Assembly (NCBI GenBank): GCA_016928095.1
Contig: JAFGLL010000061.1
Span: 1,181-65,180, forward strand
DNA length: 64,000 nucleotides
Reading direction: 5' to 3'
From: Thermoplasmatota archaeon
GTDB taxonomy: Archaea; Thermoplasmatota; Penumbrarchaeia; Penumbrarchaeales; Penumbrarchaeaceae
Of the stretch, positions 6,001-50,092 are shown one piece after another. Each line of letters opens with the position of its first letter. The stretch's first letter is position 1. Position numbers and translations under genes: made by a program. The notes beneath the pieces are model-generated. The model had not been told where the DNA came from and searched no databases. It saw only the letters and a program-made list of their open reading frames with translations.

Positions 6001-9000
6001 GGTTGCACCGGCATGGGTGTCGAGGAACACTATCCTATCATCTTCGATCCTCGGGTAGGTCTGGTCCCAGTCCTCGTCAATGAAGTTCGAACTGGTATTC
6101 AATTCTACATGGAAAATTCCGTTATAAGATATATCCTCGTCAATGTCACCATCGTCGTCATCGTCCAGATAATTGAATGGATCTTCATTGGTATAGCTAT
6201 CATCGTCATCGTCTGTCAGGTAACCGGGTTCGTAGAAATTAGGTATGCCATCATTGTCCAGGTCAATATCAAAAAGGTAAATATCGAAATCCGATCCGTT
6301 CCTGGCCTGGAACACGATCCTGTCTTCGTATATGTAAGGGTTCAGCTGTTCCTCAAGGGTAGAGTTCAGCTGCCTGAACTGCTGTCCGGTCAGGTTCAGT
6401 TCCACCAGATAGATGACCGATTCTGCTCCGTCCCAGCATTCAAACACTACATGGTTGCCGCAAATACTGGGATGGCGGAAATCCTTACCCTCGGAATTGT
6501 ATGTGTCGGTGGTATCCAATACCATGTCATAGACCTTGAGAACGTAATTCGAGCCGACAAGTTCGGTCCAGGCTATCTTATTCCCGTAAACGACCGACGG
6601 ATCACGATACTGATTATTGCTGGTGAACTCGTCAACCGGATCGATGTTCTCAAGGTCGGTCCGGAGCCGGAAGAATGCAGATGTGGCAAAAGATGTGCCT
6701 GGTAGGTATGATGTATGGATCGGGAATGTGTACCCGTATTCTTCGTCCTGCGAGAAATCCGTCTCCGTGATCTCCAGTATCGACGTATCCCCGGTATCAT
6801 CCCCGAACAAGGTCTGTTTTACCTGGGACATGTTGCAGACCATCGCCTTGTCCGCAAACAACCCGACACCCGCCTTCCTTGATGAGACAAGGTAATGAGT
6901 ACCTGATTCTTCGGGTTCGAAAGTGATGTAGTTCCACCTGAACTTATTATCCAGTGAGAAATTCTTCACTGCGATTGAACTCTGGCTACTGTCGAGAACC
7001 TCAAGCTTGAGGTTCTCTTCCTTGATCATCACATCATTCATCCAGACATGGGTCACCCCTTCACCCGGCGAGGTAAGGTTCTTGTTCCCGGCAGAGATAC
7101 CGAAAAAAATCCTGAAAGATGAATAGCTGCGAATATCAGCGGAACCGAGCTGAGAGTATGACCCGAGATAGTTCTTGCGATAGAACCCGATCTCTTTCCC
7201 GTCGGAGATCAGCATGATCTGGTTGCCGGCAAAGTCAAGATCATTATACTGAGCATTTGACCGGTTGGTCTCGGTGAATCCGATGGAGAAGGTCGCTCGC
7301 AACGAATCGTCATCACCGTCCACTACCCCAAATATCATCCTGCTTTCCCTGCCCAGTTTCGTCTCGGACCTCACGGTGTAGTTGAACAAACAGGTGAAAT
7401 TTGTCTGGAACTCACGAAGTGAGTAGTACACATCGTTGCTGATGTCCGTATCCATGCAGGCGACATTTACGCTGTAGTGTGCGTTCCCGGACCCGGAATC
7501 GTCGATAGTGATCGCGCCATCGGATTCACCAGACCCGACATGCTCCCAATTATCCATAAAATCATAGACATCATCGAATGTATCATAGACCTCCCACTCG
7601 GAGTCCTGATCTGCCCTACTACGGAAATAATACCGGTATTCGGTCCCATTGTCAAGCTGGACAGGGATGCTGATCAAGTTAGTTGATAAAGATTCGTTGT
7701 AGATCACATGACCACTGGACGCGTTGATGAACGGACTGATATCTCCGTCACCATAGTATTCGGCTTCGAACCATAATGTTCCCGACCGCTGCTCAACACC
7801 ATCGATGATGAGGTCCTTATCGGAATCCATCATAACGGGGTTGGTGATCAACCCGTCAAGCTCGTCATCGCTCCTGATTATTACGAACGAGTCCAGTAAC
7901 ACCGCATCGGTGGAATCTATCGAGATCTTCAGCATATCAGTGTCCGGGTCGATGGAGAATATCTCGGTTGTGTAATACCTGAATCTACTTGATAAAATAA
8001 ATGACTGGTTGATCGTCAGCGGGTCTGCGGTGTACCCGTCAACTTCCCACACAGATATTTTCACGGTCTGGTTGAACACCTGGTTCTGTGGACCCAGTCT
8101 GAACATGAATCTTATACTGTCATCCGATCCGGGCGGAACCGGTAAGTATTTATTGATGAGCGATCCGCTGGAAGTAGGTTTAAGAGCCTTCTCACCGCAG
8201 GCGTCCCAGGACGGTTCGATCTGGTCTGTTGTCAGGCCAAAGTCCTCGCCCTCATACCAGCAAACATTTTCGTTATTCTCCTGCGAGTCCAGGATATAAT
8301 CGTCATCGGAATCCAACGAATAGGAATTGATCCAGAGCGTCCGGCTCAGGCCGGGGGTGAACGATGCGTTGTTCAGTATACCGTGGTTGCACTGGTCGTC
8401 AAACTCGTTGGTCAACCTGAACTCCGGGTTGCCATAAGATGTTCCGTGGTATGAGTTCCCGCTAAGGTCGCGGATGGTATAGGTTCCTGAGGTCCAGTTG
8501 CTGTCCTCAAACGAGATGAATAAGTCAGGATCAGATGGTGGCTCGCCGATCATGAATAAATTGATCTCGTCAAATGTCAAAGCCCTTCCAAAGTATCCTA
8601 CGTCGTCGATCTTGCCCTTGAAATAATATTCGTTCCTGTTCCCATCGAACGTTGTGGCTTCCGACCCGTCGCCTATGAAACCGAATCTTGTAGCTGTGGT
8701 GCCAAGGCCCAGCCCATTATGTGGATTCTCGGCAATGGCTTCAAGGTCGCCGTCCAGGTATAGGTATTTGTCGGTGCCGTCGTAGACCGCGCACATGAAA
8801 TGCCAGTCCCCATCATTCACTGCGGTAGTCCCGATCAAGTCGTCAATTCCATTATCAGATTTCGTGGAAAAACCCATGTTCCCATTATCGCCCCGAACGT
8901 AAATGTTGAAATACTCACTCCGGTCAAAGTCGAGAAACGCCCAGTTCAGGTTCTGGCCCATACCGGATTCCGTTGTCTTGAACCAACAGAAAGCCGACAT

Positions 9001-12000
9001 CTGGGTGATGCAGTTTTTCTCGCTGAACGACATGTTAAGAGCGATGTAATCGTCACCGTCAAAGTCCATGCATGTTTCATACGACCGGATATTGAACGGA
9101 CCATGGAATATTATCCCGTTTGAGGTCCAGGTGTTCTCCTTGATTAGTATATCCGAAAGTACACCGTCCGAACCGGTGAATCCGTTGAACACCCGGACAC
9201 CGGTCCTGTTCACGATGTCAAAGTCCATGAACGGTGTGACATCGTGCTGGAATCCGGGGTCCATGAACGGGTGTATCTCCGGGTAGGTCTCAATCTGGAC
9301 ACGGCCATACACGTCCAAAAATGACCCGGGATCGGATATCGTGACCTTGTTATCATCGGTCAGGGTATCTATCATCCGACCCTGGCACCCGCCATCAAGA
9401 TCGAGTTGATTGGACATGTCCTCATCGAACGAGCATCCGCTCATCGAAATTTGTCCGTTTGAAGACCGGACGGCTGTGTCGTTGATGTTACTGAATGATA
9501 TGCCCCACTTGGTCAGTCTGGATGTCGAGAACGAGTTACCCTGGAACGATGCCTTGAACTTCAGTTCCGAATAACCGTTGTAAGGTGTCAGGTCAAACGG
9601 TAATGTGTCCACCTTGGTGATTGTATCATTGGACCCGTCCAACAAGTATAGATTCAACCGGTAAAGGTCGTCAGGGTCTTGGTAGGTCACGAACAGCTCG
9701 TCCCATTGGTTATTTGTCGGTCTGGTTATCACATCCGAGACGAGGAACCCGTCGGTGTAGTAAACAGGTACATAATTGGAATTGGTCACGGTGATACCTT
9801 CGACATACACTTCCGGGTCGAACCCTAACCCGATGGATTCTTCGGTAGGGTCTTCAAGCACGGTGATTCTGATAGTGAGGTTATCAATCTCTGTCCAGCC
9901 GGTATTGTTCTCCCTGAACACCTGACCAAATAATTCCAGTAGAGGATCATCAAGGCTCTTGTCGACATATGACGTATTGGTGACATGATACCAGGTCCAA
10001 TGATACCCGGTTTTGATAGATTTCTCCCAGGATTCACCGGTGTAATTCCAGTCATTTTCTTCTGGATGATCGCCCAATAACGTATAGTCAAACGAGCTGA
10101 ACACCATTTTCCGTGACTTGAAGTTCTGGTCGTCACGGCTTATATTGAACGAAATGGACGCTATCGAACCTTCAGTGAAGTTCTCCGGGTTGGCCATCAG
10201 CAGGAACCTGGTCTGTAGAACGTAGTCCATGGCCTGGTCGGACTCATCGAAGTCTATCGTGTATTCAAGGGTTTCATACGAAGCCTCGGACTCGGTCCCT
10301 TCACACGTTACCTTGAGATCCGACCCGGATCCGGACCAGGTATTGTTGGATTTGCTGACCGTCCCGGTCCCCGTCGCGTTCCATTTTTCCTGGTCGATGA
10401 CCGACCAGTTCTCGGAAAAGATCGTGTCTGACCCGGATTCCTTTAACTTGATCGCACTACCGTCCAGAATTAGGTTCTCGTTCAACTCATCGATAGACGC
10501 GACCGAATAGTCGATAGTATATTCCGTCCTAGACTGAGAGAATGAGACGTTGTACAACGAAACATTCCCGTTAAAATTGTTTATCACAGTATTGTCCATT
10601 GAATATACCTGGGACGAATACATCAATAAATTCCCGCCATGGACCTCCATTCCGATATTACAATTTTCGGTAAGGTCCGAGGTCTCATTGTTTATCCTGA
10701 CCCCGATCAGGATCAGAGTGCTGCTAGACGAATAAATAATGTAATCATTCAAGTAGAATGAATCACCGCGCATGGATTGCTGGCTACCATCGGCGAACAA
10801 ACCGATATAGTTACCATAGAAAATATTATCGCTGACACGGGCAGTGGATGGTCCGGGTGACCGGACAACGCCGGATCCACCTGAACATATCGCTGTGGGT
10901 TCACCTAACAGGAACTCGGTGAACCCGTCACCGTTGATGTCGCCCGCGCTTACTGCCTCACCGAACCCGACACCGCTCCCGCTCCCTGTGAACGTGTACA
11001 ATGCTGAACTAACCGAGATAGGATCGGTGTTAACTGCCGAACCTAGCATGATATACGCCTCGATCGAATCCGGGTCAGTAATGATCAGATCCTGGACAAA
11101 GTCGCCATTGATATCGAACCCGCCAACGCATTGATAGCCAAGTGTTGTTGTGCTTTCCGAGGTAAACTGTGTAAAATATTCCGAATAGGTCAGATTATTG
11201 GATTCGAAAAGGGCCTGCCCCGAATATACAGATAAAGTGGAATTCCCAGCAAACACCGCGATATCGTCGAACCTATCACCGTTGATGTCACCCACATTGA
11301 ACACGTTTGTTCCGAAATCACCCGACCCGAATATGATATCCTCGTAACAGTCCGACGATTTTGAACCGGATAACCGGGAACCCGAATACAGGTAAACGGA
11401 TGACGAATAATCGCACCCCACCGCGAGCTCGGTCATGCCGTCGCCAGTGTAATCACCCACCTGAGTCAAATTGGCTCCAAACCCGGTCTCGGCAGACGTT
11501 AAAACACAGTCGGCGGTCTCGTCCATGGACCCGCCTCCAAAATAGATGTAGACCTTGTTCTCGCCCGGAGACCCGACCGCAACATCCGAATACCCGTCGC
11601 CGTTAAAGTCGCCCCCGCTCGTGAAACTTGATCCGAATGTGGAATCGGCCTCGGATATCTGGATGGACCCCAGGGTGGCCTTGAACTGGTACCATAACCG
11701 GATACTGTCAAACGATGGGGTGAACGCGCCGTTGTAATAATCAGCCTCTGAGATATTTATCCGGATCCGGAAGAACTTGGTGTAATACGAATTGAACTGG
11801 ATAGGTGTGCCACTTGACATGGGTTCGTAATACCAGGTGTCACCGTCAACCGACCAGCCAAGGTCGAACGAGACAGATCTGCCGTTCTGCGAATATATGA
11901 TCTGCGGGACCACCTGATCTGCCCAGTCAGGGAGCTCTGCCACAGAGCTCAGGTATGACCCCTCATCGTGGTACCCGGACCCCGTGACGTTCACCGAGTA

Positions 12001-15000
12001 GATTGTCGGCGTGACATCGAACAGGTCGCTCTCCAGGAAGATCTTCACCTGGATATATTTCGTCACAATGTTGGTTGGGGTGAAATCAACCAGATCAACA
12101 AAATAAAACGACCCGGGACCGGTAGGACCGGTCCAGGACCCGTTCTCTATCTGGGAGGTTGTGTTACCGGTTCTTATCTGGTATTTCACATTGGTTTTTT
12201 CCGGGATGGTTACCGGGATATCGACCGATATCAGCCGGACCGGTGATTCGAACGATAATATCGACGAAGTCACATCTGATCGGTACCGGACCATGCTGAA
12301 CAAATTGATCCGGCTCATTATAAACTCGTCAACCGCACCTGCGAAGTAGTTACCGTCGTCGTTTCTACCGATATATAACTTGCCGGTGTTGTCAAAAGAT
12401 AGATAAGGTACTTCAACGAAACCGTAGACACGGCCGTTGACAAACGACCGAAGTACACCGTCTCCGAACGTGAACCCGACCTGGGTCCACCGACCCACAC
12501 AATCGTTCATATCAACGTCCTCGATAGGGGTGGATGTGGAATACCAGATGGACCCGGCACGGGCATACACGATCAAGCAATAATCGTTGTAATTTTTCTC
12601 TATACTGAGATTGAACGAGTTGTCCTTTTCAAGTATCACGTACCGGTCGTCTGTTAGCTCCTGAGGCATCTTCACGAACAGACTTAGGGTCATACCATAC
12701 TCATCGTAATCGAAATTGGTGTCATTGACAAAGAGATAATCGTCAACACCGTCAAGGGAAACAGCCGACCCGATATGACCGGTGACCCAATCGGATCCGT
12801 AGCCGGACCCGTCAAATAGGACGGCTTTCTGAGAACTGTCGTGATGGTTCTTGGAGTTGAGCCCAGTTCCCTCATCAAACCTGATCGATGTGATCTGATC
12901 TGTATCAAATGACCAGGTCGAATTGAAATGATCACGTTTGACGTAGCTTATCCGGGCGTCATCAATCTTCCCGAGGAAATATTCGCCTACCTTGATCACG
13001 GCCCCGTCTTCCAGGATCGGACCGGTACTGGACACGGATTTCTGGGCGTCCAACCTGCCATTGATGAACGTTTTGATTATTCCGTTGGTATTGTCATAGG
13101 TCAACCCCACATGGTACCATGTATTGAACTGGTCATCGAAATTTAAACAACTGTATGATGTATCTGTCCATTGCTCGGACCCGTCCTGTTTGACCATGCC
13201 ACGGAGATAAATGTCGCCATAACCGTCCTCAAACAGAGATAACCCGTATGACCCTGGACGGGTGATGATGTAGTTATGACCTGCATGGCCGGTTCCTGTC
13301 GGGTAGATCCATGCATCAAGGCTGATATCAGTATCGATGGTGTAATCGAACCCGGCAGTGGTAAATGACACATACGACGAATCCGAACCGTTGAATGACA
13401 GGCATCTACCGAACCTGCCATCTGACCAGGCTGCGTCGTAGATGTCACCGTTATTGGACAGGATATTGTCAACGGTCATCGTACCAGATCCTTCGTTCAT
13501 ATTACATAGAAAAATTGTATCTTCGTCTGACAATGATTCGGATTCGGATCGGAAATATATCAATGTCGGGAAATCCGACCGGGGGATGTTGGACAATCTG
13601 ACCTCATCGAATCGACCTTTAAATTTGTTCATGTAATCATACGACTCATATTCGGCGCCAATGATCAGTCTGCTTTCATAATCACCGGACCAGTCATCAG
13701 AGTCATCAGTATCGAACTGGAGCACCCCGTCAATATACATCTTAATACCGTCGCCCCAGGTAACTGCAACATGATACCACTTGTTCGAGTCCCAGGAAGT
13801 CCGATCGGACCAGACAGTATGAGGGCTGTCATGGTCTATGATGAATGTCAAATGACCATTATCCTCATCAAAAAATAATGACATGTAATCGTTTGAAGGT
13901 CCCTTAATATCCATCAGATAAACTGGATCCTCTGACAATGCAGAGAATGGTTCTTGAAGATTGAAATACATCTCGAAGGTTCCAGTGGTCAGATTGAACC
14001 TATTACCACAATCAATATAACTACCCATACCACACGACTCAAGGCATCCATCGAAGTACCCTTTTGTATCCCATTCAAATGAATCAGGAGTGAGTGTGAA
14101 ATCGTAGCAGTCGTAATAGAATTCATTATAGACATCCATGCCTGAGGTCTCATCCAGATGAAGAAGTAATTCAGTATATATATCAGCAGAATAGGAATGC
14201 AATCCTCCTTCCCTGGGATCTAAAGGGGTTGTTTCAATGGCCTCTGTGTAAAAATACAGTTCATCGATCCAACCATGAAAGTTCGAAAAGGTGGTATATG
14301 GTAGTGCATCATTATAAGAATCTTCGGGAGGATTGCATCCCTCAGGATCGGTCAACGGTCGCTGCCCAAGAACATAAAACTCAGAATCGGTATCAAGCTC
14401 AAATTTATTCTCGACGGTTTCGTTCATCTTCTCGATATCTCGGACCTCTCCATCAAGTTCAAGGAATGCATAATGGTCCTTAAAATATACTCGGACATGA
14501 TGTGTCTCATCCTTATCTATTATATCACCTGCAGATAGTAACCGCGAGGTTGTTAAGGAACCGTTGAACATGCATGTATAACCCTGGGGAAGGTCCTCAT
14601 AATGATAAACATCAGTGAACCGGATATCGTCGACATAGAACAATCCATCATAAGGCGGTAGGTCCTTGTCAGCGATCAGGATGATCCTATCGAAACCGAA
14701 ATCTGTAGTGCTAACGATAGAAGCCCAATCCGAATAGATGTTTTCCATGAACATATCGAATTGCATATTTTGCGTCATTGTCCCATCATCTACCCAGTTA
14801 CCTACAGCCATCTCTTCTTGTGCGAAAGGTGTGGTGCCTCCAAGATAATAAATCAGCTCATTCCGTGAAGGACCAGTCCCGTTTGCAATACCAATTGCGG
14901 CTATTTCACCGATATTATCGCATCTGATGAAAAAATTGAATTGGGCAGTAGTATCCAGGTAATATTGTCCGATCTCCCATTCCATCCATGAATCACCATC

Positions 15001-16839
15001 ACATTGAAACGAGCTTAAAGGTGACAAGAAAACATTACTCTGAGATCCTTCCATTTCATCGTTGTTATCCGCTCCAGGTACTATTCCTTCATAAAAATGA
15101 AGATCTTCATTCTGGTCAATGTATAGCTCTAGTCGATTATCTTGTACTTTGGTCGGGACCAAATTTGGGATGTAATCGTATTCCAGATCAACGGTATATG
15201 TTTCTACATGGACTTGATTATTCTGAAGAACGATCCCCATTTCAGGAACTGTAAGGTTGGTATCATACAATCCCATCAACATTTTCCGATGATTTGTCTC
15301 AAGGTCACTCCTTTCGTCTTCGCAATAACCAGGATTCCTGAACCAAAAGTCAATCGTTCCATCACCATTTAGATATGGGGATTCTAATGGTTCGGAAGTG
15401 ATCCCGAGTTTTAAGTAATCATCCACCCCGTCAAAATAAATCGCTTTATCTGAATGACCGGTCTTGTACGTTGGTGTAGTACTATCATTTCCGTCATAAT
15501 ATATTGATGACCATTCTCTTGATGTTTTTTCAAATCCCAAATATTCATTTTTACTTGAATCAAATGGAAAATAACTAGTGCAATAATCCGATGCTGGATC
15601 GAATGTAAGAATAGAATAATCTTTAGGGAAACTAATCGATACACCGTCCGTCCAGAAATCTAAATCGGTTGAGTCTACCCGATCAGATGACTTGTTCAAT
15701 TCCCACATTACCGATGAAGTGGTATCTATCAAGACCAGTTGACCAGATCCTTTTTCTCCTCCCTGTTGGGCTGCCATTCCAAATAAGTTCCCTGATTGGA
15801 AATCTGTAATTGTTTCATTTGATATTTTACCTCCAAACCCGGAAATGTTTGTGAAATAAACATATACGGAATTATTTCCCGGTGCTGAAATGACCAAGTC
15901 ATTTAGCCCGTCGCCGTTCATATCGCCGTTGAAATCGATCTTGCTTCCGAACATGTCCCCGGAGTCTTTCCCGTATAATTTTATATCCGCATCGAACGGG
16001 GTCAGCTCGGACAAACAAATATCCGGACTGCCATAGAAAAGGTAAACCGCACCAGCATCCGACGCAACAGTATCGTCATACGGAGCCGATATCACCACAT
16101 CCGTGAAGGTATCATTGTTGAAGTCCCACATGCAACTGACATAGGTTCCGAAACCATTGTCCCCTTCGTTATCGTAGATCATCGCCCCTTCGCTTGTGGA
16201 GTTGAAGAAATAGATACCGAACTGGTTGTTGTAGATCTCGTTATTTGTGATGATCGGGTTCGAACAGACGAAAATACCGAATATCTCGTTGTCATGGATC
16301 TTACTACTAGATATACTGACGTTGTCACCGAGTACAACGATACCTCCCTCGGAGGGGGAGCCGCCGACAAAGGAGATGTCGGAGTTCTGAATGGAGGCGT
16401 TGCCCTCGATCTTGAGATCATAAAAATATCCACCAGACCTGTTGATAACCGATACCGTGGTCCCGTCAAGGTATAACTCACCGCATATTCCGGTTGTTTC
16501 GTTCTTCTGGACATGCAGGATGAAGTTACCCTCGACCGGATGATGGAAAAGTAACTCACAGTTGATAAGAGAGAGATTCCCACCTGGTTGGATCACCACA
16601 TTACCGTAGATCTTCAGTACTTCATTCTCTCTGACGACCGTATCACCCGGTTCGATGTACCAGTCATTGTAGGTGTAGCCATCATAAGGTTCGCCCACCT
16701 CGGACCAGAGTTTGTCCACGATAGGGCTGAAATTCACGATGTACATCATAACAACTAAGGAAATGGCGATCACCTTCGTTGCTCTCGATATTTTTTTCTG
16801 GATGTTTTCAGAAATATGGATCTTCTCTTGCCATCTCAT
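1..16839 (-). CDS. Giant secreted/membrane-anchored surface protein (adhesin-like), 5' end at ATG 16839, 3' end beyond the left edge (>=5,613 codons in window)
   Basis: Hand translation of the minus frame: ATG at 16839-16837 is preceded by an in-frame TAA at 16863-16861 and a G-rich stretch (GGGGGGAAG) 7 nt upstream. N-terminus MRWQEKIHISENIQKKISRATKVIAISLVVMMYIVNF is a signal anchor. Downstream are right-handed beta-helix repeats (IHDNEIFGIFVCSNPIITNNEIYNNQFGIYFFNS) and FG-GAP-like repeats (DFNNDTFTDVVISAPYDD..GAVYLFYGS; DFNGDMNGDGLNDLVISAPGNNSVYVYF). Spot translations at ~12000, ~8000, 241-420 and 1-60 stay open in the same frame. Near the left edge the sequence is calcium-binding repeats (ADCDNDGLLDSVEPDPFTDTDGDGYINVWDQDSNDGEGNG). 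Every ORF the track lists in 1-16839 is short and in another frame. The track skipped this ORF because it has no stop inside the window. Confidence 0.8.
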   Translation of the reverse strand, partial: MRWQEKIHISENIQKKISRATKVIAISLVVMMYIVNFSPIVDKLWSEVGEPYDGYTYNDWYIEPGDTVVRENEVLKIYGNVVIQPGGNLSLINCELLFHHPVEGNFILHVQKNETTGICGELYLDGTTVSVINRSGGYFYDLKIEGNASIQNSDISFVGGSPSEGGIVVLGDNVSISSSKIHDNEIFGIFVCSNPIITNNEIYNNQFGIYFFNSTSEGAMIYDNEGDNGFGTYVSCMWDFNNDTFTDVVISAPYDDTVASDAGAVYLFYGSPDICLSELTPFDADIKLYGKDSGDMFGSKIDFNGDMNGDGLNDLVISAPGNNSVYVYFTNISGFGGKISNETITDFQSGNLFGMAAQQGGEKGSGQLVLIDTTSSVMWELNKSSDRVDSTDLDFWTDGVSISFPKDYSILTFDPASDYCTSYFPFDSSKNEYLGFEKTSREWSSIYYDGNDSTTPTYKTGHSDKAIYFDGVDDYLKLGITSEPLESPYLNGDGTIDFWFRNPGYCEDERSDLETNHRKMLMGLYDTNLTVPEMGIVLQNNQVHVETYTVDLEYDYIPNLVPTKVQDNRLELYIDQNEDLHFYEGIVPGADNNDEMEGSQSNVFLSPLSSFQCDGDSWMEWEIGQYYLDTTAQFNFFIRCDNIGEIAAIGIANGTGPSRNELIYYLGGTTPFAQEEMAVGNWVDDGTMTQNMQFDMFMENIYSDWASIVSTTDFGFDRIILIADKDLPPYDGLFYVDDIRFTDVYHYEDLPQGYTCMFNGSLTTSRLLSAGDIIDKDETHHVRVYFKDHYAFLELDGEVRDIEKMNETVENKFELDTDSEFYVLGQRPLTDPEGCNPPEDSYNDALPYTTFSNFHGWIDELYFYTEAIETTPLDPREGGLHSYSADIYTELLLHLDETSGMDVYNEFYYDCYDFTLTPDSFEWDTKGYFDGCLESCGMGSYIDCGNRFNLTTGTFEMYFNLQEPFSALSEDPVYLMDIKGPSNDYMSLFFDEDNGHLTFIIDHDSPHTVWSDRTSWDSNKWYHVAVTWGDGIKMYIDGVLQFDTDDSDDWSGDYESRLIIGAEYESYDYMNKFKGRFDEVRLSNIPRSDFPTLIYFRSESESLSDEDTIFLCNMNEGSGTMTVDNILSNNGDIYDAAWSDGRFGRCLSFNGSDSSYVSFTTAGFDYTIDTDISLDAWIYPTGTGHAGHNYIITRPGSYGLSLFEDGYGDIYLRGMVKQDGSEQWTDTSYSCLNFDDQFNTWYHVGLTYDNTNGIIKTFINGRLDAQKSVSSTGPILEDGAVIKVGEYFLGKIDDARISYVKRDHFNSTWSFDTDQITSIRFDEGTGLNSKNHHDSSQKAVLFDGSGYGSDWVTGHIGSAVSLDGVDDYLFVNDTNFDYDEYGMTLSLFVKMPQELTDDRYVILEKDNSFNLSIEKNYNDYCLIVYARAGSIWYSTSTPIEDVDMNDCVGRWTQVGFTFGDGVLRSFVNGRVYGFVEVPYLSFDNTGKLYIGRNDDGNYFAGAVDEFIMSRINLFSMVRYRSDVTSSILSFESPVRLISVDIPVTIPEKTNVKYQIRTGNTTSQIENGSWTGPTGPGSFYFVDLVDFTPTNIVTKYIQVKIFLESDLFDVTPTIYSVNVTGSGYHDEGSYLSSVAELPDWADQVVPQIIYSQNGRSVSFDLGWSVDGDTWYYEPMSSGTPIQFNSYYTKFFRIRINISEADYYNGAFTPSFDSIRLWYQFKATLGSIQISEADSTFGSSFTSGGDFNGDGYSDVAVGSPGENKVYIYFGGGSMDETADCVLTSAETGFGANLTQVGDYTGDGMTELAVGCDYSSSVYLYSGSRLSGSKSSDCYEDIIFGSGDFGTNVFNVGDINGDRFDDIAVFAGNSTLSVYSGQALFESNNLTYSEYFTQFTSESTTTLGYQCVGGFDINGDFVQDLIITDPDSIEAYIMLGSAVNTDPISVSSALYTFTGSGSGVGFGEAVSAGDINGDGFTEFLLGEPTAICSGGSGVVRSPGPSTARVSDNIFYGNYIGLFADGSQQSMRGDSFYLNDYIIYSSSSTLILIGVRINNETSDLTENCNIGMEVHGGNLLMYSSQVYSMDNTVINNFNGNVSLYNVSFSQSRTEYTIDYSVASIDELNENLILDGSAIKLKESGSDTIFSENWSVIDQEKWNATGTGTVSKSNNTWSGSGSDLKVTCEGTESEASYETLEYTIDFDESDQAMDYVLQTRFLLMANPENFTEGSIASISFNISRDDQNFKSRKMVFSSFDYTLLGDHPEENDWNYTGESWEKSIKTGYHWTWYHVTNTSYVDKSLDDPLLELFGQVFRENNTGWTEIDNLTIRITVLEDPTEESIGLGFDPEVYVEGITVTNSNYVPVYYTDGFLVSDVITRPTNNQWDELFVTYQDPDDLYRLNLYLLDGSNDTITKVDTLPFDLTPYNGYSELKFKASFQGNSFSTSRLTKWGISFSNINDTAVRSSNGQISMSGCSFDEDMSNQLDLDGGCQGRMIDTLTDDNKVTISDPGSFLDVYGRVQIETYPEIHPFMDPGFQHDVTPFMDFDIVNRTGVRVFNGFTGSDGVLSDILIKENTWTSNGIIFHGPFNIRSYETCMDFDGDDYIALNMSFSEKNCITQMSAFCWFKTTESGMGQNLNWAFLDFDRSEYFNIYVRGDNGNMGFSTKSDNGIDDLIGTTAVNDGDWHFMCAVYDGTDKYLYLDGDLEAIAENPHNGLGLGTTATRFGFIGDGSEATTFDGNRNEYYFKGKIDDVGYFGRALTFDEINLFMIGEPPSDPDLFISFEDSNWTSGTYTIRDLSGNSYHGTSYGNPEFRLTNEFDDQCNHGILNNASFTPGLSRTLWINSYSLDSDDDYILDSQENNENVCWYEGEDFGLTTDQIEPSWDACGEKALKPTSSGSLINKYLPVPPGSDDSIRFMFRLGPQNQVFNQTVKISVWEVDGYTADPLTINQSFILSSRFRYYTTEIFSIDPDTDMLKISIDSTDAVLLDSFVIIRSDDELDGLITNPVMMDSDKDLIIDGVEQRSGTLWFEAEYYGDGDISPFINASSGHVIYNESLSTNLISIPVQLDNGTEYRYYFRSRADQDSEWEVYDTFDDVYDFMDNWEHVGSGESDGAITIDDSGSGNAHYSVNVACMDTDISNDVYYSLREFQTNFTCLFNYTVRSETKLGRESRMIFGVVDGDDDSLRATFSIGFTETNRSNAQYNDLDFAGNQIMLISDGKEIGFYRKNYLGSYSQLGSADIRSYSSFRIFFGISAGNKNLTSPGEGVTHVWMNDVMIKEENLKLEVLDSSQSSIAVKNFSLDNKFRWNYITFEPEESGTHYLVSSRKAGVGLFADKAMVCNMSQVKQTLFGDDTGDTSILEITETDFSQDEEYGYTFPIHTSYLPGTSFATSAFFRLRTDLENIDPVDEFTSNNQYRDPSVVYGNKIAWTELVGSNYVLKVYDMVLDTTDTYNSEGKDFRHPSICGNHVVFECWDGAESVIYLVELNLTGQQFRQLNSTLEEQLNPYIYEDRIVFQARNGSDFDIYLFDIDLDNDGIPNFYEPGYLTDDDDDSYTNEDPFNYLDDDDDGDIDEDISYNGIFHVELNTSSNFIDEDWDQTYPRIEDDRIVFLDTHAGATSVWIAGVTSVKPYAGMPTEACLKVNSTSLISGDYTECWNPRISGSNLLFAAYAGFQVSSGTESRPAIGIYDLSHNQLKFVPISVAGFDVYNENIVYSTSEGSLGVYDINVNFNKILMESCSPSVPAIHKNTFCWLNDTTSNQNIVSVYSQYIEIEASSSGSGILESSKVIPLDELSSDFGPDILEYLYGKTTDQTYEMEIHTKNPLNVTLDHLEINLEFIMDPLDPDTDYDNVNDGEEIVTFGGVSILECEDAQLYKPWNPTYMTEFLSEDNELLKTTAGYGFFQQRSVSLISSNYNDTILDSSIKLQFVPDKTGTYRFSLNYPAESRQDKLVGTMIPGNLPRTELLPQGSLNVTDLDLNSSEAEYLQDILSESFQMRVYYSYNEVSPIEYSSESTYTENVNIIKVVNTSNDPNEEPIKAVIGEITSQGEYLLQGGMMYYLELSLDLADQTSETPEGVIDPDRITLQYLDYIRVDYQGLDPMNRDSDMDDIDDGDEAFNETRYALSSDPDHDGISDKWEDYFGTDFGDRDSDGDGIRDGVELGLSGQFIEYINGDVNSTGSFFERIAHSSDRSPFNFSLINNFDADNGATLTDPMDPDTDNDGLPDGWIDGWYYGDEVFPRLYRKSYDSFWDRYANLDYWEYQPWKWDRKMDPDNVKQIYEGEDLNLDGKTEPFDAVWSFDPYTFEVAGVGETNASSLDTDGDSIDDGYEVWYSHIWPYFIYRDGTVEGLDPTVDDDDKDIDGVDVLWEAGLMEGETNPETIDYDNEYDDRGTYDWQFWSSMCEGSSLNRIHGFAQRLDVKAGDLFDADYIEVKADFYSETIVEIWEGTDPDWLNTNPKTVYPERPVFQLKMPPTVSDDGWIKIPLAGNFDYLPSISMTTDVYPVYFIVLRNEFMHPNEGPGLVWHTKHTMEDPGQVLIFTDLVFQDENIPEESYDALWESVKLGTAPDEMVREMFHNFWAFYPNFQFFDAWQIKNTSSNKFCAKFGYRIVDLDKESIKMNVPYYKENWEDDKFPLIDQNELAIRLMNFTEDERFDFFEGRFYVQTDDSWSGDIYLMEGKDQPHNSLQSMDIDLPADFEGWFIFDINGLVMPESGMQYFIVISGDESMQMLNLINNDDDNSPLDYMMKNGEYAPWESVPAGTQPAFILLSNKFDSYQYGDDLSNRDEYIIGTHPKKNNTDRMIIEDDVYNDYLDDGEEIYAGGSSAYHTKGGVIYRSSFDGGSLRFEGYDNSSAWLNYDWDGFGAAITMNFTYSRMVTNPPADSPCGWDNITLLFRLKDESGVFMDESSSQLYIWDKKNVIPDSQDSESGYKILPGKVAIYNRSGTEQNMNHLPIDRNREVYFCNPFEIDSDIDGIVDGQEVQMFSDSDSDYVANLRDTDSDNDKVLDRQEINWSLNSGDDDGIENMIDPDSDNDGLLDGDEVSWNFDTDDDGYENMIDPDSDGDGLPDGWMDGMIWDPIDKEFVDYSNTFVNDGDYNGYSFVDEVNGYFDPWEGEDSNMNGKHDRDEPDPTKADTDGDSLWDGFDVYSNASVRTGLPAHYGELYYCSDSWLDDEYDDGMPFSAGDQRRIAQSKAFKTGILLQMTNQMGADSDGDGLTDYEEILIWTLKVEDFVPAYNLTSNDYNNRKIKTFFAQNLIGSKYLSSDPNDPDSDDDGLSDKDEYKFTNPLDVDTDNDGLPDKMENWHNYGMRDYDETNPCDRDTDNDGLPDGWCDGWDTEHTSAVDIIETGECEFNIADSEDGWNSYPQYTNQIEFGEYKKVGVDYTQLSDPLRADTDEDGIIDGIEYCYYWNVKGDPFYDSDGDNKFDLREIDSDNDGFTDGEENRNQNFELDYAWAIYVPGPGDNWNDNSKPTGSEWVNYPYFTEGYKVKHYLESDPTIADCDNDGLLDSVEPDPFTDTDGDGYINVWDQDSNDGEGNGPGHGPKAWTYGNLTIYTPDDNKDDSFSHNAMFYDLVDPSEWDHKDFNQTYIVFRTNANDTDEDLRIDYNDIGNNSGRWVS

Positions 16840-17224
16840 AACACTTCCCCCCAGATTTCTTTATCCATTCAAACCATTGAATGATGGGGTATTTAAATGA
16901 AAATAAAAATGGACCTCCCGCAAGGGGGGTCTATATAATACTTTCGCTTTCATTTTTATCACCGGAAAAAAAGACGTGTTCCAAGGGTATGACATATGGC
17001 CGAAAGGGGGGAGAAAGTGACCGGGAGGCCATGAGGATGACCATAATACAGGAGACTCCAACGAAATTTAGGTCCCATGATATATCGATAAACAGAAAGG
17101 GTATCCCCTTTGTAAGTCCATACCCCCATCAGAGCGAAAAGTGGACTTCAATGATCATGATCCTGACGAGATGGATGGAATCTTTTTATTACCAATATCA
17201 GTATGTCATATATTGGGTCCAATA

Positions 17225-18274
17225 ATGAAACTTGACATGTCAAAGATGATTCCTGTTGTACTGATAGTAATTCTATCGGTCCCTCTATTTTACTACATAT
17301 TATTCTATCCCGATAAAAGAAACAATGATACTGAAAACAGATTGGATATGGTCATAGGTTTCTATATCTCAGGTGAGGATTTTCTTCAACAACTCATCGA
17401 CGAGGATATATCAGACACATTAGGATTGTCATCCGATAGGATCGAATTCTATTACCTTGTCGACTATTCCGGGTTCGGAAATACTGAGTTCTTTCATGCC
17501 AGGAATTATACTAAGATCCCATTGAATATCTCACAAATTCTTCCATATGACTCTTCAGAACTGGATATGGGCTCGGATGAGGTATTTGCAGGTTTTGTCG
17601 ATTATATATCTGATATCGAGGCAAAAGATCATTGCTTGATCATATGGGGACATGGACGGGGGTATGAAGGAGTATGTTTTGATGGCAGTTCCATGCTCAC
17701 AGGAAAAGAGATCGGATCGAGTCTTACCGGAAAAGGAATAGACCTTCTCATCTTTGATGCCTGTGAAATGATCTGTGCTGAATTCCTCTACGAATTGAGA
17801 GATCCGGTTAGATACATACTCGGATCGGAAAAGGATATCCCGGATCGCGGATTGGATTATTCAGGGGGGTTCACAAGGTTTTTTGGATCCAATTCGAGAG
17901 ATATCAAGAACCTTGCCATCGACATCATGGATGAAACTTTTTCGTATTATTCCAGGAACCCGTCCAGGTTCTCCTTACAACTATCGTTGATCGATATGTC
18001 GGACTTCATGGCATTTTCTCGGGACTTCACATCATCCTTTCTGACCGAGAACTCCATCTATCCGGATCGTTTCGAATCCGGGAAGAGGTTCGACCTTGGG
18101 CTTCTTCTCGAAATGAACAATGAAACATGCCTCCTGAGGACGTTGGAGGATTCGATAGAATACCTGATGATCCTTCCATCCACTTCAGGGGTACCGGTCA
18201 AAGGCCTGTACGGTATATCCGTCCTGTCGCCTGAGTTCACAGAAGATGGGATCGACAATCCGTTCCTTCTCTGA
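17225..18274 (+). CDS. Membrane-anchored clan CD cysteine peptidase (C11 clostripain-like)
   Basis: Track ORF 17141..18274 begins at a GTG. The more likely start is ATG 17225 (MKLDMSKM), followed by a TM helix (IPVVLIVILSVPLFYYILF). Catalytic His-Gly and Cys motifs typical of C11/clan CD: LIIWGHGRGYEG and LLIFDACEM. A TATA-like CATATATT sits ~20 nt upstream. Transcribed divergently from the giant surface protein. Confidence 0.55.
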   Translation: MKLDMSKMIPVVLIVILSVPLFYYILFYPDKRNNDTENRLDMVIGFYISGEDFLQQLIDEDISDTLGLSSDRIEFYYLVDYSGFGNTEFFHARNYTKIPLNISQILPYDSSELDMGSDEVFAGFVDYISDIEAKDHCLIIWGHGRGYEGVCFDGSSMLTGKEIGSSLTGKGIDLLIFDACEMICAEFLYELRDPVRYILGSEKDIPDRGLDYSGGFTRFFGSNSRDIKNLAIDIMDETFSYYSRNPSRFSLQLSLIDMSDFMAFSRDFTSSFLTENSIYPDRFESGKRFDLGLLLEMNNETCLLRTLEDSIEYLMILPSTSGVPVKGLYGISVLSPEFTEDGIDNPFLL

Positions 18275-18285
18275 ACGGGATCGTT

Positions 18286-18650
18286 TTTTCAAGAACAAGT
18301 TCGGATCCGCCTGTGGGGATATTCTATCCAATCTGTAGTAAAGTTAGTATGGATAGAATATATGGTAGCTCCGCTACCGCTTCCCCGAAGCGGTAGGATA
18401 TAGAGATGAGCCCCCACCCCTGAGATCTTGGTAAAGGTTGTGACATCATATATTCTCCATCTGAAAAAAAAATTGAATGGAGAATATATGGTAGCCCCGG
18501 GCGGATTCGTCCAGCCAAATCCCTTTGGGATTTCGCGGACTTGCAAATCCTCGGATAGTGAAGCCTCGGATTTTCAAGAACAAGTTCGGATCCGCCTATC
18601 GGGGATATCCTATCCATCTTATGAAGTTGTAATAATGGATAGGATATGAG
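18286..18650. repeat. Tandem/nested direct repeats between the C11 gene and tRNA-Gln, including partial copies of the tRNA-Gln 3' end
   Basis: A 27-bp exact direct repeat ttttcaagaacaagttcggatccgcct lies at 18286-18312 and 18561-18587 (275 bp apart). Each is followed by a similar ~60-bp segment (ggggatatYctatcca...atggatagRatat...). A copy of the tRNA-Gln 3' end tggtagccccgggcggattcg at 18489-18509 matches rc of tRNA 18651-18668 and encodes CCA on the minus strand. A perfect 10-bp palindrome ctaccgcttc-ccc-gaagcggtag lies at 18374-18396, and there is an A9 run at ~18464-18472. Confidence 0.6.
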
Positions 18651-18723
18651 TAGCCCCGGGCGGATTCGAACCGCCGTCTCCGGCTCCAAAGGCCGGAATG
18701 ATTGACCACTACACTACGGGGCT
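18651..18723 (-). tRNA. tRNA-Gln (anticodon TTG)
   Basis: Minus-strand sequence AGCCCCGTAGTGTAGTGGTCAATCATTCCGGCCTTTGGAGCCGGAGACGGCGGTTCGAATCCGCCCGGGGCTA. Acceptor AGCCCCG/CGGGGCT, anticodon stem CCGGC/GCCGG with loop CTTTGGA (anticodon UUG), T arm GGCGG-TTCGAAT-CCGCC. No encoded CCA. Confidence 0.85.
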
Positions 18724-18756
18724 GTGATATCGGTCGAAGGAAAAGGAAGCTTGTAG

Positions 18757-20334
18757 TTAATCCTTTTCCATTTTTCCAAGTGCCAAGCGAAGCTTTCTTA
18801 GGACCTCGTCCTTATCCATCGTCGACAGGAAGAAACCCAGACGTGGGCCTTTGTCCCGTCCGAGCAATATCCTATAGAAAGCAGTGAACGTCACCTTGGG
18901 ATCGATCCCCCTGGACCTCGACCCCTCGTAAATGGTGTTGTGTATCGACCCGGGTTCCCAGGGGATCCTCCGGAAATCCGTGTACATCGCTTCAAGGGCG
19001 GAAAGCTGGCCGTCATTCAGCTTTTCAACCTCCTCCTTCGGAGGGTCATCGTAAAGCCTGAACTTGACCTCATCAGGGGCGAATCTCTTGAGCCAGAAAT
19101 CCACACAAGCCTTCCTGTGGGAAAGTCTTTCGAGGGAAGCCTCGTCGAGCTCCTCTATCCCCTCGGTCCTCTTTATCATGGAAACCAGGTCGTCCATCTC
19201 CAATACGAGCTGGGTCAAGGTGACAAGGTGCCTGTAGGGGATGTTCACGAAGCGGCCCATGCTATCGTGGTCCTCCGGTTTGCCGACCATGGAGAGCATG
19301 TAGGTCCTCTTCATATCGTCAGGGTCATCGTTACCCTCGTCCTTGTAGAAGTTCTCCTCGTACCTGTCGTATTCGTCCACAAGGTTTAGTATTCCCAAAC
19401 CCGGGTCCATATCGATATGCTTGGCGGGCTGGTTCCTTGATATAAGGAACCGCAGCACCTCGGGCGGGGTCATCCGGAGCATGTCGACACCGCTCACGAC
19501 CACACCGCTGGATGAGGACATGGCTCCTTTACCCTTGAGCTGGATCCATTCGTAGACCACGGGTATCGGTGGCGGGTAGTCTAGCACGGACCTCGCGATC
19601 TCGGACGAGGTATCGTATGATCCGCCGGAGGCAGCATGGTCCTTACCGAAAGGTTCGCATGTCACCCCCAGCCAATACCATCTTGCCGGCCAGTCCAATC
19701 TCCAGGGGAGCTTGCCGTCATCCGTTCGAGTGTCGGCCTCTCCCTCATGACCGCAGGAGCACCTGAAGAGTACGTAAGGGGGGGCCCATTCATACGGTCT
19801 GGTCGAATCGATCCTGCCGCACGATGGACATTTCGGATTGTAAGGGAACCAGTCAGGGGGTAGCTCTCTTCCCGATACCCTGTTCAGTATCTCCCTAACC
19901 TTCTCCCTAGAATCCATCAGGATCGCCGTAGCCTTGGCGTACCTGCCTTCTCTGTAGGATATGCTTGACGGAAGTACCACGGGTCTTATACCGAGGACCT
20001 CCACGGACCGAAGGAACGGTTCGAGGAAATGCTGAGCATAGGTTTTCCCTCCACCTTCCGGCGAGGGTATCTCCGATAGGGGTTTGCCAACATGCTCCGA
20101 ATATTCTTCCGGGAGGAAAGGATATACCTTTCGGAGGGGATCGAAATCATCGGCAAGATAATACAGGGTAGAATCGACACCTATGTCCATGGCCGCTCTA
20201 TGGACCAGGTCCCCGGTAAGGATCTCCCTCATGTTCCCGACGTGTATATGACCGGAGGGAGTTATCCCCGTCGCTATGCGATGGGACCCACCGGTTTCCT
20301 TCAGCTTCCTGGCTATCACATCTGCCCAATGCAT
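18757..20334 (-). CDS. lysK: Lysyl-tRNA synthetase, class I (archaeal type)
   Basis: 525 aa. HIGH-type motif HIHVGN near the N-terminus and KMSKS variant (AMSSSSG). The overall sequence looks like archaeal class I LysRS. Confidence 0.9.
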   Translation of the reverse strand: MHWADVIARKLKETGGSHRIATGITPSGHIHVGNMREILTGDLVHRAAMDIGVDSTLYYLADDFDPLRKVYPFLPEEYSEHVGKPLSEIPSPEGGGKTYAQHFLEPFLRSVEVLGIRPVVLPSSISYREGRYAKATAILMDSREKVREILNRVSGRELPPDWFPYNPKCPSCGRIDSTRPYEWAPPYVLFRCSCGHEGEADTRTDDGKLPWRLDWPARWYWLGVTCEPFGKDHAASGGSYDTSSEIARSVLDYPPPIPVVYEWIQLKGKGAMSSSSGVVVSGVDMLRMTPPEVLRFLISRNQPAKHIDMDPGLGILNLVDEYDRYEENFYKDEGNDDPDDMKRTYMLSMVGKPEDHDSMGRFVNIPYRHLVTLTQLVLEMDDLVSMIKRTEGIEELDEASLERLSHRKACVDFWLKRFAPDEVKFRLYDDPPKEEVEKLNDGQLSALEAMYTDFRRIPWEPGSIHNTIYEGSRSRGIDPKVTFTAFYRILLGRDKGPRLGFFLSTMDKDEVLRKLRLALGKMEKD

Positions 20335-49720: not shown

Positions 49721-49841
49721 GATGATCCATCAAGTATCTAGCTTTTTGTTATTTATCCCTGTTGACGGAATATCATCAAACGGGTCAACAGGATGACCTT
49801 TTAAGAGAGAGATAGAAAAAGCAGCATTGATCGATGAAAAG

Positions 49842-49867
49842 AAAATGGCGCAGAGGAGGGGATTCGA
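49842..49867. repeat. 26-bp exact direct repeat of the tRNA-Ser 3' end (aaaatggcgcagaggaggggattcga), second copy at 50000-50025 inside/abutting the tRNA
   Basis: Identical 26-mers at 49842-49867 and 50000-50025, with sequences diverging immediately after. Consistent with an att-core-like duplication of a tRNA 3' end. Confidence 0.6.
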
Positions 49868-50003
49868 TCTTAGGAAAATTCCTTTGGAATTTCCCTGACC
49901 TGTAACTTTCGCGATAAGGAAACACGAAAGTTCCAGGACCAAGGTTCAAATCCCATCCGCGGTTTCTATCTACAATTGATGATCATTTGGGATCGATAGA
50001 AAA

Positions 50004-50092
50004 TGGCGCAGAGGAGGGGATTCGAACCCCCGAGGGCTGTTGCCCACCGGATTTCAAGTCCGGCGCCGTGGGCCGAGCTTAGCTACCTCTGC
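50004..50092 (-). tRNA. tRNA-Ser (anticodon TGA), class II with long variable arm, CCA encoded
   Basis: Minus strand: GCAGAGG-TA-GCTAAGCTCGGCCCACGGC-G-CCGGA-CTTGAAA-TCCGG-TGGGCAACAGCCCTC-GGGGG-TTCGAAT-CCCCT-CCTCTGC-G-CCA. A TATA-like TTATAT lies ~33-38 nt upstream on the minus strand. Confidence 0.85.

Follow-up and report, generated by a model that had tools for sequence, protein, structure and literature searches.

Introduction

The segment from the T-loop to the 3′ end of a transfer RNA (tRNA) gene serves T-loop-class integrases as their classical identity block. Integron attC and CTX-phi attP(+) are recombination sites formed by a folded single strand, and IS200/IS605 elements leave neither a target duplication nor an inverted copy of their target. 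tRNA-like RNAs produced by tRNA-processing enzymes are known from mascRNA of MALAT1 (RF01684) and from tRNA-snoRNA dicistrons. In archaea, partial tRNA genes commonly derive from integrated elements, according to passages in PMC9897764. The casposase of Aciduliprofundum boonei requires the T-loop segment of tRNA-Pro and duplicates 15 bp at this tRNA's 3′ end, the end at which mini-casposons integrate as well (PMC5137440). Here, we analyzed a 480-bp spacer that includes a tRNA-Gln gene, on the tRNA strand, in a 64,000-nucleotide stretch of DNA (contig JAFGLL010000061.1; hereafter the window) from an uncultured Thermoplasmatota archaeon. The spacer holds two copies of a non-coding unit, the I module, a second unit named X1, and partial copies of the tRNA 3′ end.

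The I module recurs behind tRNA-Ser, both elsewhere in this window and in genomes of related archaea, which marks it as a recurrent, conserved tRNA-linked element and not random debris. With moderate confidence, we read the spacer as the product of serial insertion of conserved, structured and probably transcribed non-coding modules at tRNA genes. A full-text literature search found no description of such modules.

Results

Architecture of the spacer at tRNA-Gln

Read on the tRNA strand, the spacer runs from the 3′ end of the intact tRNA-Gln (direct repeat DR1) through a hairpin (H3), an inverted repeat (IR), two further hairpins, a second direct repeat (DR2), hairpin H2, the X1 module, a degenerate tRNA-end copy, hairpin H1 and a second IR, after which 13 nt lead to the stop codon of a convergent gene. 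Of the module families, I is the best defined. The I module (~140 nt) consists of an AT-rich hairpin right behind the tRNA, an imperfect inverted copy of the tRNA stretch between the T-loop and the acceptor 3′ strand, and two hairpins; after it comes a direct repeat of the tRNA that reaches from T-loop C56 to the 3′ end. The IR is an imperfect inverted copy of the tRNA segment GTTCGAATCCGCC-CGGGG (T-loop to acceptor). The following features were located, with related loci given by their L numbers:

18651..18723, minus strand: intact tRNA-Gln(UUG) (ARAGORN; Rfam tRNA model, 66.4 bits)
18650..18668, minus strand: DR1, CGAATCCGCCCGGGGCTAC, from T-loop C56 to one base beyond the discriminator, within the intact tRNA-Gln (repeat search)
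18510..18649, minus strand: I_Gln-a, I-module copy a, homologous to the tRNA-Ser insert and with covariation
18605-18647: hairpin H3 of I_Gln-a
18584-18607: IR-a, inverted tRNA-end copy (p < 0.001), overlapping 27-mer copy 2 (18571-18597)
~18540-18578: stem 1 of I_Gln-a
~18510-18539: stem 2 of I_Gln-a, with the core GAAATCCCAAAGGGATTT at 18517-18534
18489..18509, minus strand: DR2, CGAATCCGCCCGGGGCTACCA, 21 nt from T-loop C56 to CCA, followed by the ancestral trailer
18447..18490, minus strand: hairpin H2, whose perfect 14-bp stem closes a loop that shows nine consecutive T on the tRNA strand (repeat search)
18363..18446, minus strand: X1 module, 84 nt, kept in L003 (two copies), L004 and L015
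18411-18420: G-rich motif of X1, GGGGTGGGGG (plus strand CCCCCACCCC)
18374-18383 and 18387-18396: arms CTACCGCTTC and GAAGCGGTAG of the 10-bp stem-loop of X1
18363-18372, minus strand: degenerate tRNA-end copy GGAGCTACCA closing X1
18286..18361, minus strand: I_Gln-b, truncated I-module copy b (three-unit alignment, repeat search and 27-mer search)
18319-18361: hairpin H1 of I_Gln-b
18299-18318: IR-b, overlapping 27-mer copy 1 (18286-18312)

An earlier note on this DNA had described the region as a nest of repeats, left either by successive integration and excision at a tRNA attachment (att) site or by an unrecognized non-coding RNA. All the elements that it lists were found in the sequence, the one error being the spacing of the 27-mer. 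The 27-mer TTTTCAAGAACAAGTTCGGATCCGCCT occurs exactly twice (18286-18312 and 18571-18597; 0 of 100 shuffles match), with a start-to-start spacing of 285 bp and not 275 bp as given before. Each copy is followed, as described, by a related segment of ~60 nt ending in TAGCNCCG (TAGCTCCG or TAGCCCCG), with the hairpins at 18319-18361 and 18605-18647. The 27-mer is not an independent repeat but the inverted tRNA-end copy in a unit that occurs two times. The reported copy of the tRNA-Gln 3′ end with CCA was found as well, with TGGTAGCCCCGGGCGGATTCG at 18489-18509 as its reverse complement, 159 nt from the gene copy at 18650-18668; the partial copy and the gene share 19 identical nt, and the gene has CTC where the copy has CCA. 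The perfect 10-bp hairpin between the repeats lies at 18374-18396, and the spacer has other perfect hairpins as well, with stems of 12, 13 and 14 bp. The minus strand of 18275-18756 folds far better than its shuffles (z = -8.1).

The I module behind tRNA-Ser and in related genomes

The only other tRNA gene of the window is followed by the same layout of hairpin, IR and two hairpins, closed by CGAATCCCCTCCTCTGCGCCATTTTCT:

50004..50092, minus strand: tRNA-Ser(UGA), CCA encoded, 31 kb away
49867..50003, minus strand: I_Ser, I module, 137 nt (nhmmer E = 4e-25)
49963-50002: hairpin of I_Ser
49943-49962: IR of I_Ser
~49899-49937: stem 1 of I_Ser
~49872-49896: stem 2 of I_Ser, core at 49876-49893
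49840..49866, minus strand: DR2 of tRNA-Ser, CGAATCCCCTCCTCTGCGCCATTTTCT, reaching from C56 to CCA with 6 nt more, ahead of a T-rich stretch

Global alignment of the 141-nt tRNA-Gln insert with the 137-nt tRNA-Ser insert, from which the tRNA-derived repeats were excluded, gave a score of 99 compared to 44 +/- 5.8 for shuffles (z = 9.5), and the two inserts are colinear. The stem-loop GAAATYCCAAAGGRATTT has only two sites in the window, one in each insert. Confinement of the repeats to a single locus, which the earlier note had named as a point against att relics, was not found, as homologues are present at tRNA-Ser and in relatives.

The tRNA-Ser loci of relatives were fetched via the protein adjoining tRNA-Ser, which in the window is 100% identical to JXA22_05770 from a metagenome-assembled genome (MAG) of 'Candidatus Thermoplasmatota archaeon'. 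Full I modules with a closing copy from T-loop to 3′ end lie behind tRNA-Ser in L157 (GCA_048569615.1), L156 (GCA_049472235.1) and L165 (GCA_046483845.1), and a truncated one at tRNA-Ser in L158. Across the genomes sharing this module position, identity of the adjoining protein is no more than 48-66%. The sequences used to build an nhmmer profile were L156, L157 and the two copies of the window, so that its matches to these four (E = 2e-22 for I_Gln-a and 1e-22 to 7e-26 for L156/L157) are matches to its own training sequences; the sole addition was a partial match to the truncated L158 copy (E = 0.0055). A covariance model made from all five full I copies likewise returned these five by construction, with 79.8 bits for I_Gln-a, 100.5 bits for I_Ser and 70.3 bits for L165, and its additional matches, to L009 and to a second L156 insert, were weak.

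Two I-family units, each closed by a tRNA-end copy, are stacked in L156. The second insert of this locus (332-565) is AT-rich, lies behind the first tRNA-Ser module and ends in a third tRNA-end copy; at its start, tRNA end and trailer form a perfect 12-nt palindrome (GCGCCAATTTCT / AGAAATTGGCGC), and its match to the I-family model is weak. In L165 (2174-2278), the full I module belongs to a tRNA-Ser(GGA) gene whose canonical intron position holds 21 nt of intron; ARAGORN missed this gene, and the Rfam tRNA model found it (39 bits). In L158 (1990-2370), the tRNA-Ser gene is inverted with respect to its neighbors compared to the other genomes and has no closing partial copy; at its 5′ end, an unrelated insert of ~133 nt lies between 20-nt repeats (GAGCTTAGCTACCTCTGCAG) and carries an inverted copy of the 5′ part of the tRNA.

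Conserved helices and the sense strand

RNAalifold, applied to four and then to five sequences, returned five helices: two that together make up the DR1:IR pairing, then H, stem 1 and stem 2. Compensatory pairs amounted to 18 of 48 with four sequences and to 23 of 54 with five. For the named structure and four sequences, 94.8% of cells were paired compared to 85.1% in shuffles, and 18 pairs had changed on both sides compared to 6.6, a number reached by none of 500 shuffles; slid controls had at most five such pairs. Structural conservation of this kind bears out the unrecognized structured RNA that the earlier note had offered as its alternative, and covariation is the very sign that the note had named as speaking against att relics. 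Within helices, the tRNA-sense strand has 8 G.U cells and 0 A.C cells; therefore, the fold was selected on the strand transcribed with the tRNA.

In each of the I modules, the IR reaches significance (p <= 0.001), and it tracks the local tRNA: the Gln and Ser versions differ, and a run of seven G in the L156 IR matches the seven-C run of its own tRNA. Folded alone, the segment from IR through DR2 is predicted to adopt a Y shape (z = -3.5 to -5.5), with a closing helix that reproduces the acceptor/T-stem stack and with (A)CCA as a free tail. Runs of T follow right after DR2; they are seven nt long in L157 and nine in the H2 loop, and the run at tRNA-Ser is TTTTCTTTTC, and no run of at least five T is present within any I module.

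Filled and unfilled sites and turnover of units

Comparison across relatives, as had been suggested, revealed presence and absence differences at tRNA-Gln. In L001, whose lysyl-tRNA synthetase (LysRS) is 89% identical, the same leader and tRNA-Gln are followed directly by CCATATATTCT, the sequence found after DR2 in the window. Therefore, the window differs from the L001 arrangement by an extra 141 nt and a repeat of 19 nt, and the L001 site is the unfilled one. In L001, L003 and L004, tRNA-Gln ends in ...GGGGCTACCATATATTCT, matching the sequence after DR2 of the window, and CCA is encoded in all three. DR2 thus reads as the displaced original 3′ end of tRNA-Gln. Hairpins of the H2 type also lie 3′ of tRNA-Gln in L003 and L004; H2 itself is the native trailer hairpin of tRNA-Gln and at the same time the start of the X1 unit.

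The stack at tRNA-Gln of the window comprises three units. L003 has the order tRNA-Gln(CCA), hairpin, X1a, hairpin, X1b and Iso_dh (isopropylmalate/isocitrate dehydrogenase), and L004, with a LysRS protein identical to that of L003, yet lacks X1a. A scan of genomes with the X1 core pattern returned only L015 and the genome of L003. In L015, X1 lies at the 5′ end of a tRNA-Arg gene, between 25-nt repeats of this tRNA 5′ end. Conserved features of X1 are GGGGYGGGGG and a 10-bp stem, in which three pairs are compensatory. Two scans of metagenomes for X1 returned 0 and then 102 matches, the latter by chance. The X1 body (window 18363-18446; L003 5467-5673; L015 1085-1180) contains four G-tracts (GGGG, GGGGG, GGGG and GGGG/GGAG) and the invariant CGCTTCGGGGAAGCGG.

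The logic of direct plus inverted repeat is also found in inserts with different bodies, namely that of L009, that at the 5′ end of the L158 tRNA and the second one of L156. The insert at tRNA-Gln of L009 is a different one; here, too, the acceptor strand recurs in inverted form, and another tRNA-end copy starts with GAATCC in the T-loop. Here (4686-5140), a tandem unit of ~240 nt behind tRNA-Gln repeats the tRNA end plus 37 nt of trailer, and a scaffold gap of 100 N falls within the repeat, where the assembly probably collapsed.

Gene neighborhood of the spacer

The spacer is flanked by two genes, and a very long open reading frame (ORF) follows at the start of the window:

18757-20334, minus strand: class I LysRS gene, with tRNA-Gln directly downstream
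17141-18274: Peptidase_C11 gene (Pfam), convergent, on the far side of the spacer, stop codon at 18272-18274
1-16860, minus strand: ORF of >5620 codons, running past the window start

The closest relatives of the window LysRS are found in uncultured Thermoplasmatota MAGs. In L002, L003, L005 and L009, the gene order is LysRS-(tRNA-Gln)-Iso_dh-methyltransferase-Big_9 protein. The window carries Peptidase_C11 and the giant ORF where the relatives carry Iso_dh, methyltransferase and Big_9, so synteny breaks at the spacer. The breakpoint falls at ~18275-18290, 13 nt past the IR of the truncated distal I module; I_Gln-b ends there, beside the Peptidase_C11 stop codon. The last 1000 residues of the long ORF match FG-GAP repeats only, and it probably encodes a giant surface protein.

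Comparison with known RNA and element families

Rfam searches, which the earlier note had proposed for the spacer as a way to recognize a known non-coding RNA, returned nothing beyond the two tRNAs, either at the gathering score or at E <= 10, where other hits lay far below threshold. ARAGORN and the Rfam tRNA model found no tRNA in 18275-18649. Terminal inverted repeats were not detected when the first 30 nt of five modules were compared with the reverse complement of the last 30 (p = 0.04 to 0.99).

Further candidates were considered and rejected. A tRNA pseudogene or second tRNA within the 80-nt bodies is excluded by the lack of a cloverleaf and of a tRNA-model match, the tRNA similarity being limited to 19-26 nt. 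C/D-box small RNAs were considered for either strand, and candidate boxes seen by eye are not conserved in L003. For a T-loop intron or a bulge-helix-bulge site, the tRNA-Gln insert offers bulges of 3 and 6 nt around a 5-bp helix, an arrangement that the Ser copies do not share, and the presumed splice sites fall within a continuous helix. The primer-binding site of a retroelement does not fit, as the inverted copy stops short of the ACCA end; the partial copy with its CCA is the native end of the gene, since L001, L003 and L004 all have an encoded CCA. An omega-RNA-like scaffold with a 3′ guide would attack its own locus, since the restored tRNA keeps the same 19-nt target. A miniature inverted-repeat transposable element does not match either, because terminal inverted repeats are missing and the repeat has 19-27 nt of tRNA-derived sequence compared to an expected target duplication of 2-10 bp.

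Discussion

Proposed serial insertion of modules at tRNA genes

On serial insertion, a module would enter at or near the T-loop (or at the tRNA 5′ end) and bring its own replacement end, leaving the tRNA intact, and the old 3′ end would be displaced downstream as the partial copy. The newest module would therefore lie nearest to the tRNA. Unequal recombination between tRNA-end copies could then duplicate, delete and truncate units. The modules are probably transcribed by read-through from the tRNA promoter, which would extend across them up to the T-run after the partial copy. In such a transcript, the inverted copy would pair with the partial copy to give a Y-shaped RNA with a closing helix that mimics the acceptor/T-stem minihelix and with a free (N)CCA tail. 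Such an RNA could be a substrate for RNase P, tRNase Z and the CCA-adding enzyme, and these could set its ends. As in mascRNA and the tRNA-snoRNA dicistrons, this would be a structured RNA beside or mimicking a tRNA, with a predicted acceptor/T minihelix and a CCA tail. The module differs from them in having neither cloverleaf nor T-loop, in closing the minihelix by a three-way junction with two hairpins, and in the lack of an Rfam match.

Several points weigh against serial insertion of transcribed modules. Transcription of the modules is something that we infer, and the order at tRNA-Gln could stem from two unequal crossovers without a new insertion. The sample consists of five full I copies and four or five X1 copies, and the covariation is based on five related sequences; which copy pairs with the IR, that of the tRNA or the displaced one, is not told by covariation because DR1 and DR2 have the same sequence. 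The genome and metagenome scans covered X1 only and added one genome (L015). The X1 units at tRNA-Gln have no significant inverted copy, so I and X1 may not share one mechanism. Among the tRNA-Ser loci examined, none was without the module, and vertical inheritance is possible there. No recombinase or integrase, transposase, reverse transcriptase, Cas1, tnpA or tnpB was found in the 19 large ORFs of the window scanned against Pfam, in agreement with the earlier statement that no integrase is present. Neither the I and X1 cores nor the 3′ ends of tRNA-Gln and tRNA-Ser were found on viral contigs, phages or plasmids, and the element-borne attP copies for which a search had been recommended were not encountered there; these collections hold few Thermoplasmatota elements, which makes the absence weak evidence.

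A more far-reaching version of serial insertion, which we regard as doubtful but worth setting out, is that the modules are undescribed self-propagating non-coding cassettes at tRNA genes. By analogy to attC and CTX-phi attP(+), they would insert at the T-loop through a folded single strand and form arrays in which the tRNA gene plays the part of attI; the direct and inverted target-end copies would make up a long imperfect hairpin, and read-through would yield a minihelix-mimicking RNA with a CCA tail. Folded single-strand sites would be the closest formal analogy for a target-mimicking palindrome at one junction. The likeness lies in an imperfect, bulged palindrome at one junction with one arm continuous with the target, in a one-strand structure conserved above sequence (helices 1-3), and in arrays at a fixed site. 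The modules differ in that their palindrome mimics the end of a tRNA gene and not attI or dif, and in that their cargo is a structured non-coding body of 60-90 nt and not a gene or a phage genome.

Alternative explanations

The spacer could instead hold a fixed, immobile host non-coding RNA, a tRNA-trailer RNA in which the partial and inverted copies are the two strands of one functional helix and which reached a second tRNA once, through ordinary duplication. This we consider improbable. It would explain the conservation, including the constant position behind tRNA-Ser despite only 48-66% identity of the neighboring protein, the strong covariation with its G.U bias on the sense strand, and the terminator-like T-run after the partial copy. 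It does not explain homologous modules at two unrelated tRNAs with repeats that match the own tRNA in each case, the filled and unfilled tRNA-Gln sites in relatives with 89% LysRS identity, the stacks of two or three units and the one-unit difference between L003 and L004. X1 at the 3′ end of tRNA-Gln and at the 5′ end of tRNA-Arg, and the other bodies that follow the same repeat logic in L009, L158 and L156, speak against it as well.

Fossil attachment sites are a quite unlikely explanation. Here, large integrase-borne viruses or plasmids would have repeatedly integrated in tRNA-Gln and later been lost, leaving attL/attR cores and arm remnants. Relics of this kind from tyrosine-integrase elements of the T-loop sublocation class, such as archaeal partial tRNA genes (PMC9897764), resemble the spacer in the copy from T-loop to 3′ end, the intact tRNA, the displaced old end, the stacking of partial copies and the break of synteny. 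The T-loop boundary is thereby explained, but size, homology between loci, conservation and covariation are not. Only 141 nt lie between the two tRNA-Gln copies, and in general 120-220 nt without genes or an integrase separate the copies here. The insert is conserved, structured and covarying, with compensatory changes that keep its helices, and contains an inverted copy of the same tRNA segment. It is also colinear and homologous with the tRNA-Ser insert, with matching boundaries and length, which independent decay would not give. The window contains no integrase or element genes, and no attP was found in the viral, phage and plasmid collections. Of the successive integration and excision at a tRNA att site proposed in the earlier note, what holds is the T-loop-to-3′-end copy, the several successive insertions and the break of synteny exactly here; the units themselves, which are 120-160 nt long, non-coding, homologous between Gln and Ser, placed alike behind tRNA-Ser in related genomes and with five helices kept by compensatory substitutions, are not decayed ends of large integrase-borne elements.

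A non-autonomous transposon moved in trans, either an IS200/IS605-type palindrome-associated element or a miniature casposon with a Cas1-family integrase, is a similarly slim prospect. The modules share with IS200/IS605 palindrome-associated elements a small, non-coding body with strand-specific structure, without terminal inverted repeats and with subterminal hairpins at both ends (H left, stem 2 right). On the left, 20-22 nt separate the boundary from the first hairpin, and on the right 5-9 nt separate the last hairpin from the boundary, distances that resemble IS608 geometry. IS200/IS605 elements give no target duplication, however, whereas the modules have a direct repeat of 19-27 nt and an inverted target copy, and neither tnpA nor tnpB is present in the window. 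For a casposon speak the same phylum, the target between T-loop and 3′ end known from the T-loop segment of tRNA-Pro used by the Aciduliprofundum boonei casposase (PMC5137440), the duplication at the tRNA end and the integration of miniature derivatives. The casposon duplication of 14-15 bp (15 bp in A. boonei) overlaps the tRNA by only 5 bp, however, whereas the 19-27 nt repeated by the modules start in the T-loop at C56; casposons have terminal inverted repeats, which the modules lack (p = 0.04 to 0.99), and no cas1 gene lies in the window. The internal inverted copy of the target is explained by neither model.

Local tandem duplication, with tRNA pseudogenes arising by slippage or unequal crossover of tRNA-Gln plus trailer and subsequent decay, would fit the tRNA end and hairpin shared by the units and the 27-mer identical in two of them, and unequal crossover probably reshuffled the units, but as an origin it is very improbable and contradicted by the data, as only 19-21 nt of the tRNA are repeated, the rest of the unit has no tRNA similarity or tRNA-model match, and the unit body is homologous to the tRNA-Ser insert 31 kb away and to inserts in other genomes.

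Significance of the modules

Partial tRNA copies are normally read as scars of viruses or plasmids; here, the scar belongs to a small, conserved and structured unit, found again at different tRNA genes and in several related genomes within an uncultured clade of Thermoplasmatota. The modules hold partial tRNA copies, so they could plausibly mislead predictors of tRNAs, proviruses and genomic islands that use tRNA fragments as att sites. If the unit is mobile, it would be a very small tRNA-targeting element and a handle on an archaeal insertion mechanism that copies its target in direct and inverted form. If it acts as RNA, the tRNA-linked RNAs of this kind would form a new family, with a CCA end that resembles a minihelix. 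Either way, the modules explain local rearrangements in these archaea, such as the break of synteny at tRNA-Gln and the inversion of the tRNA gene in L158.

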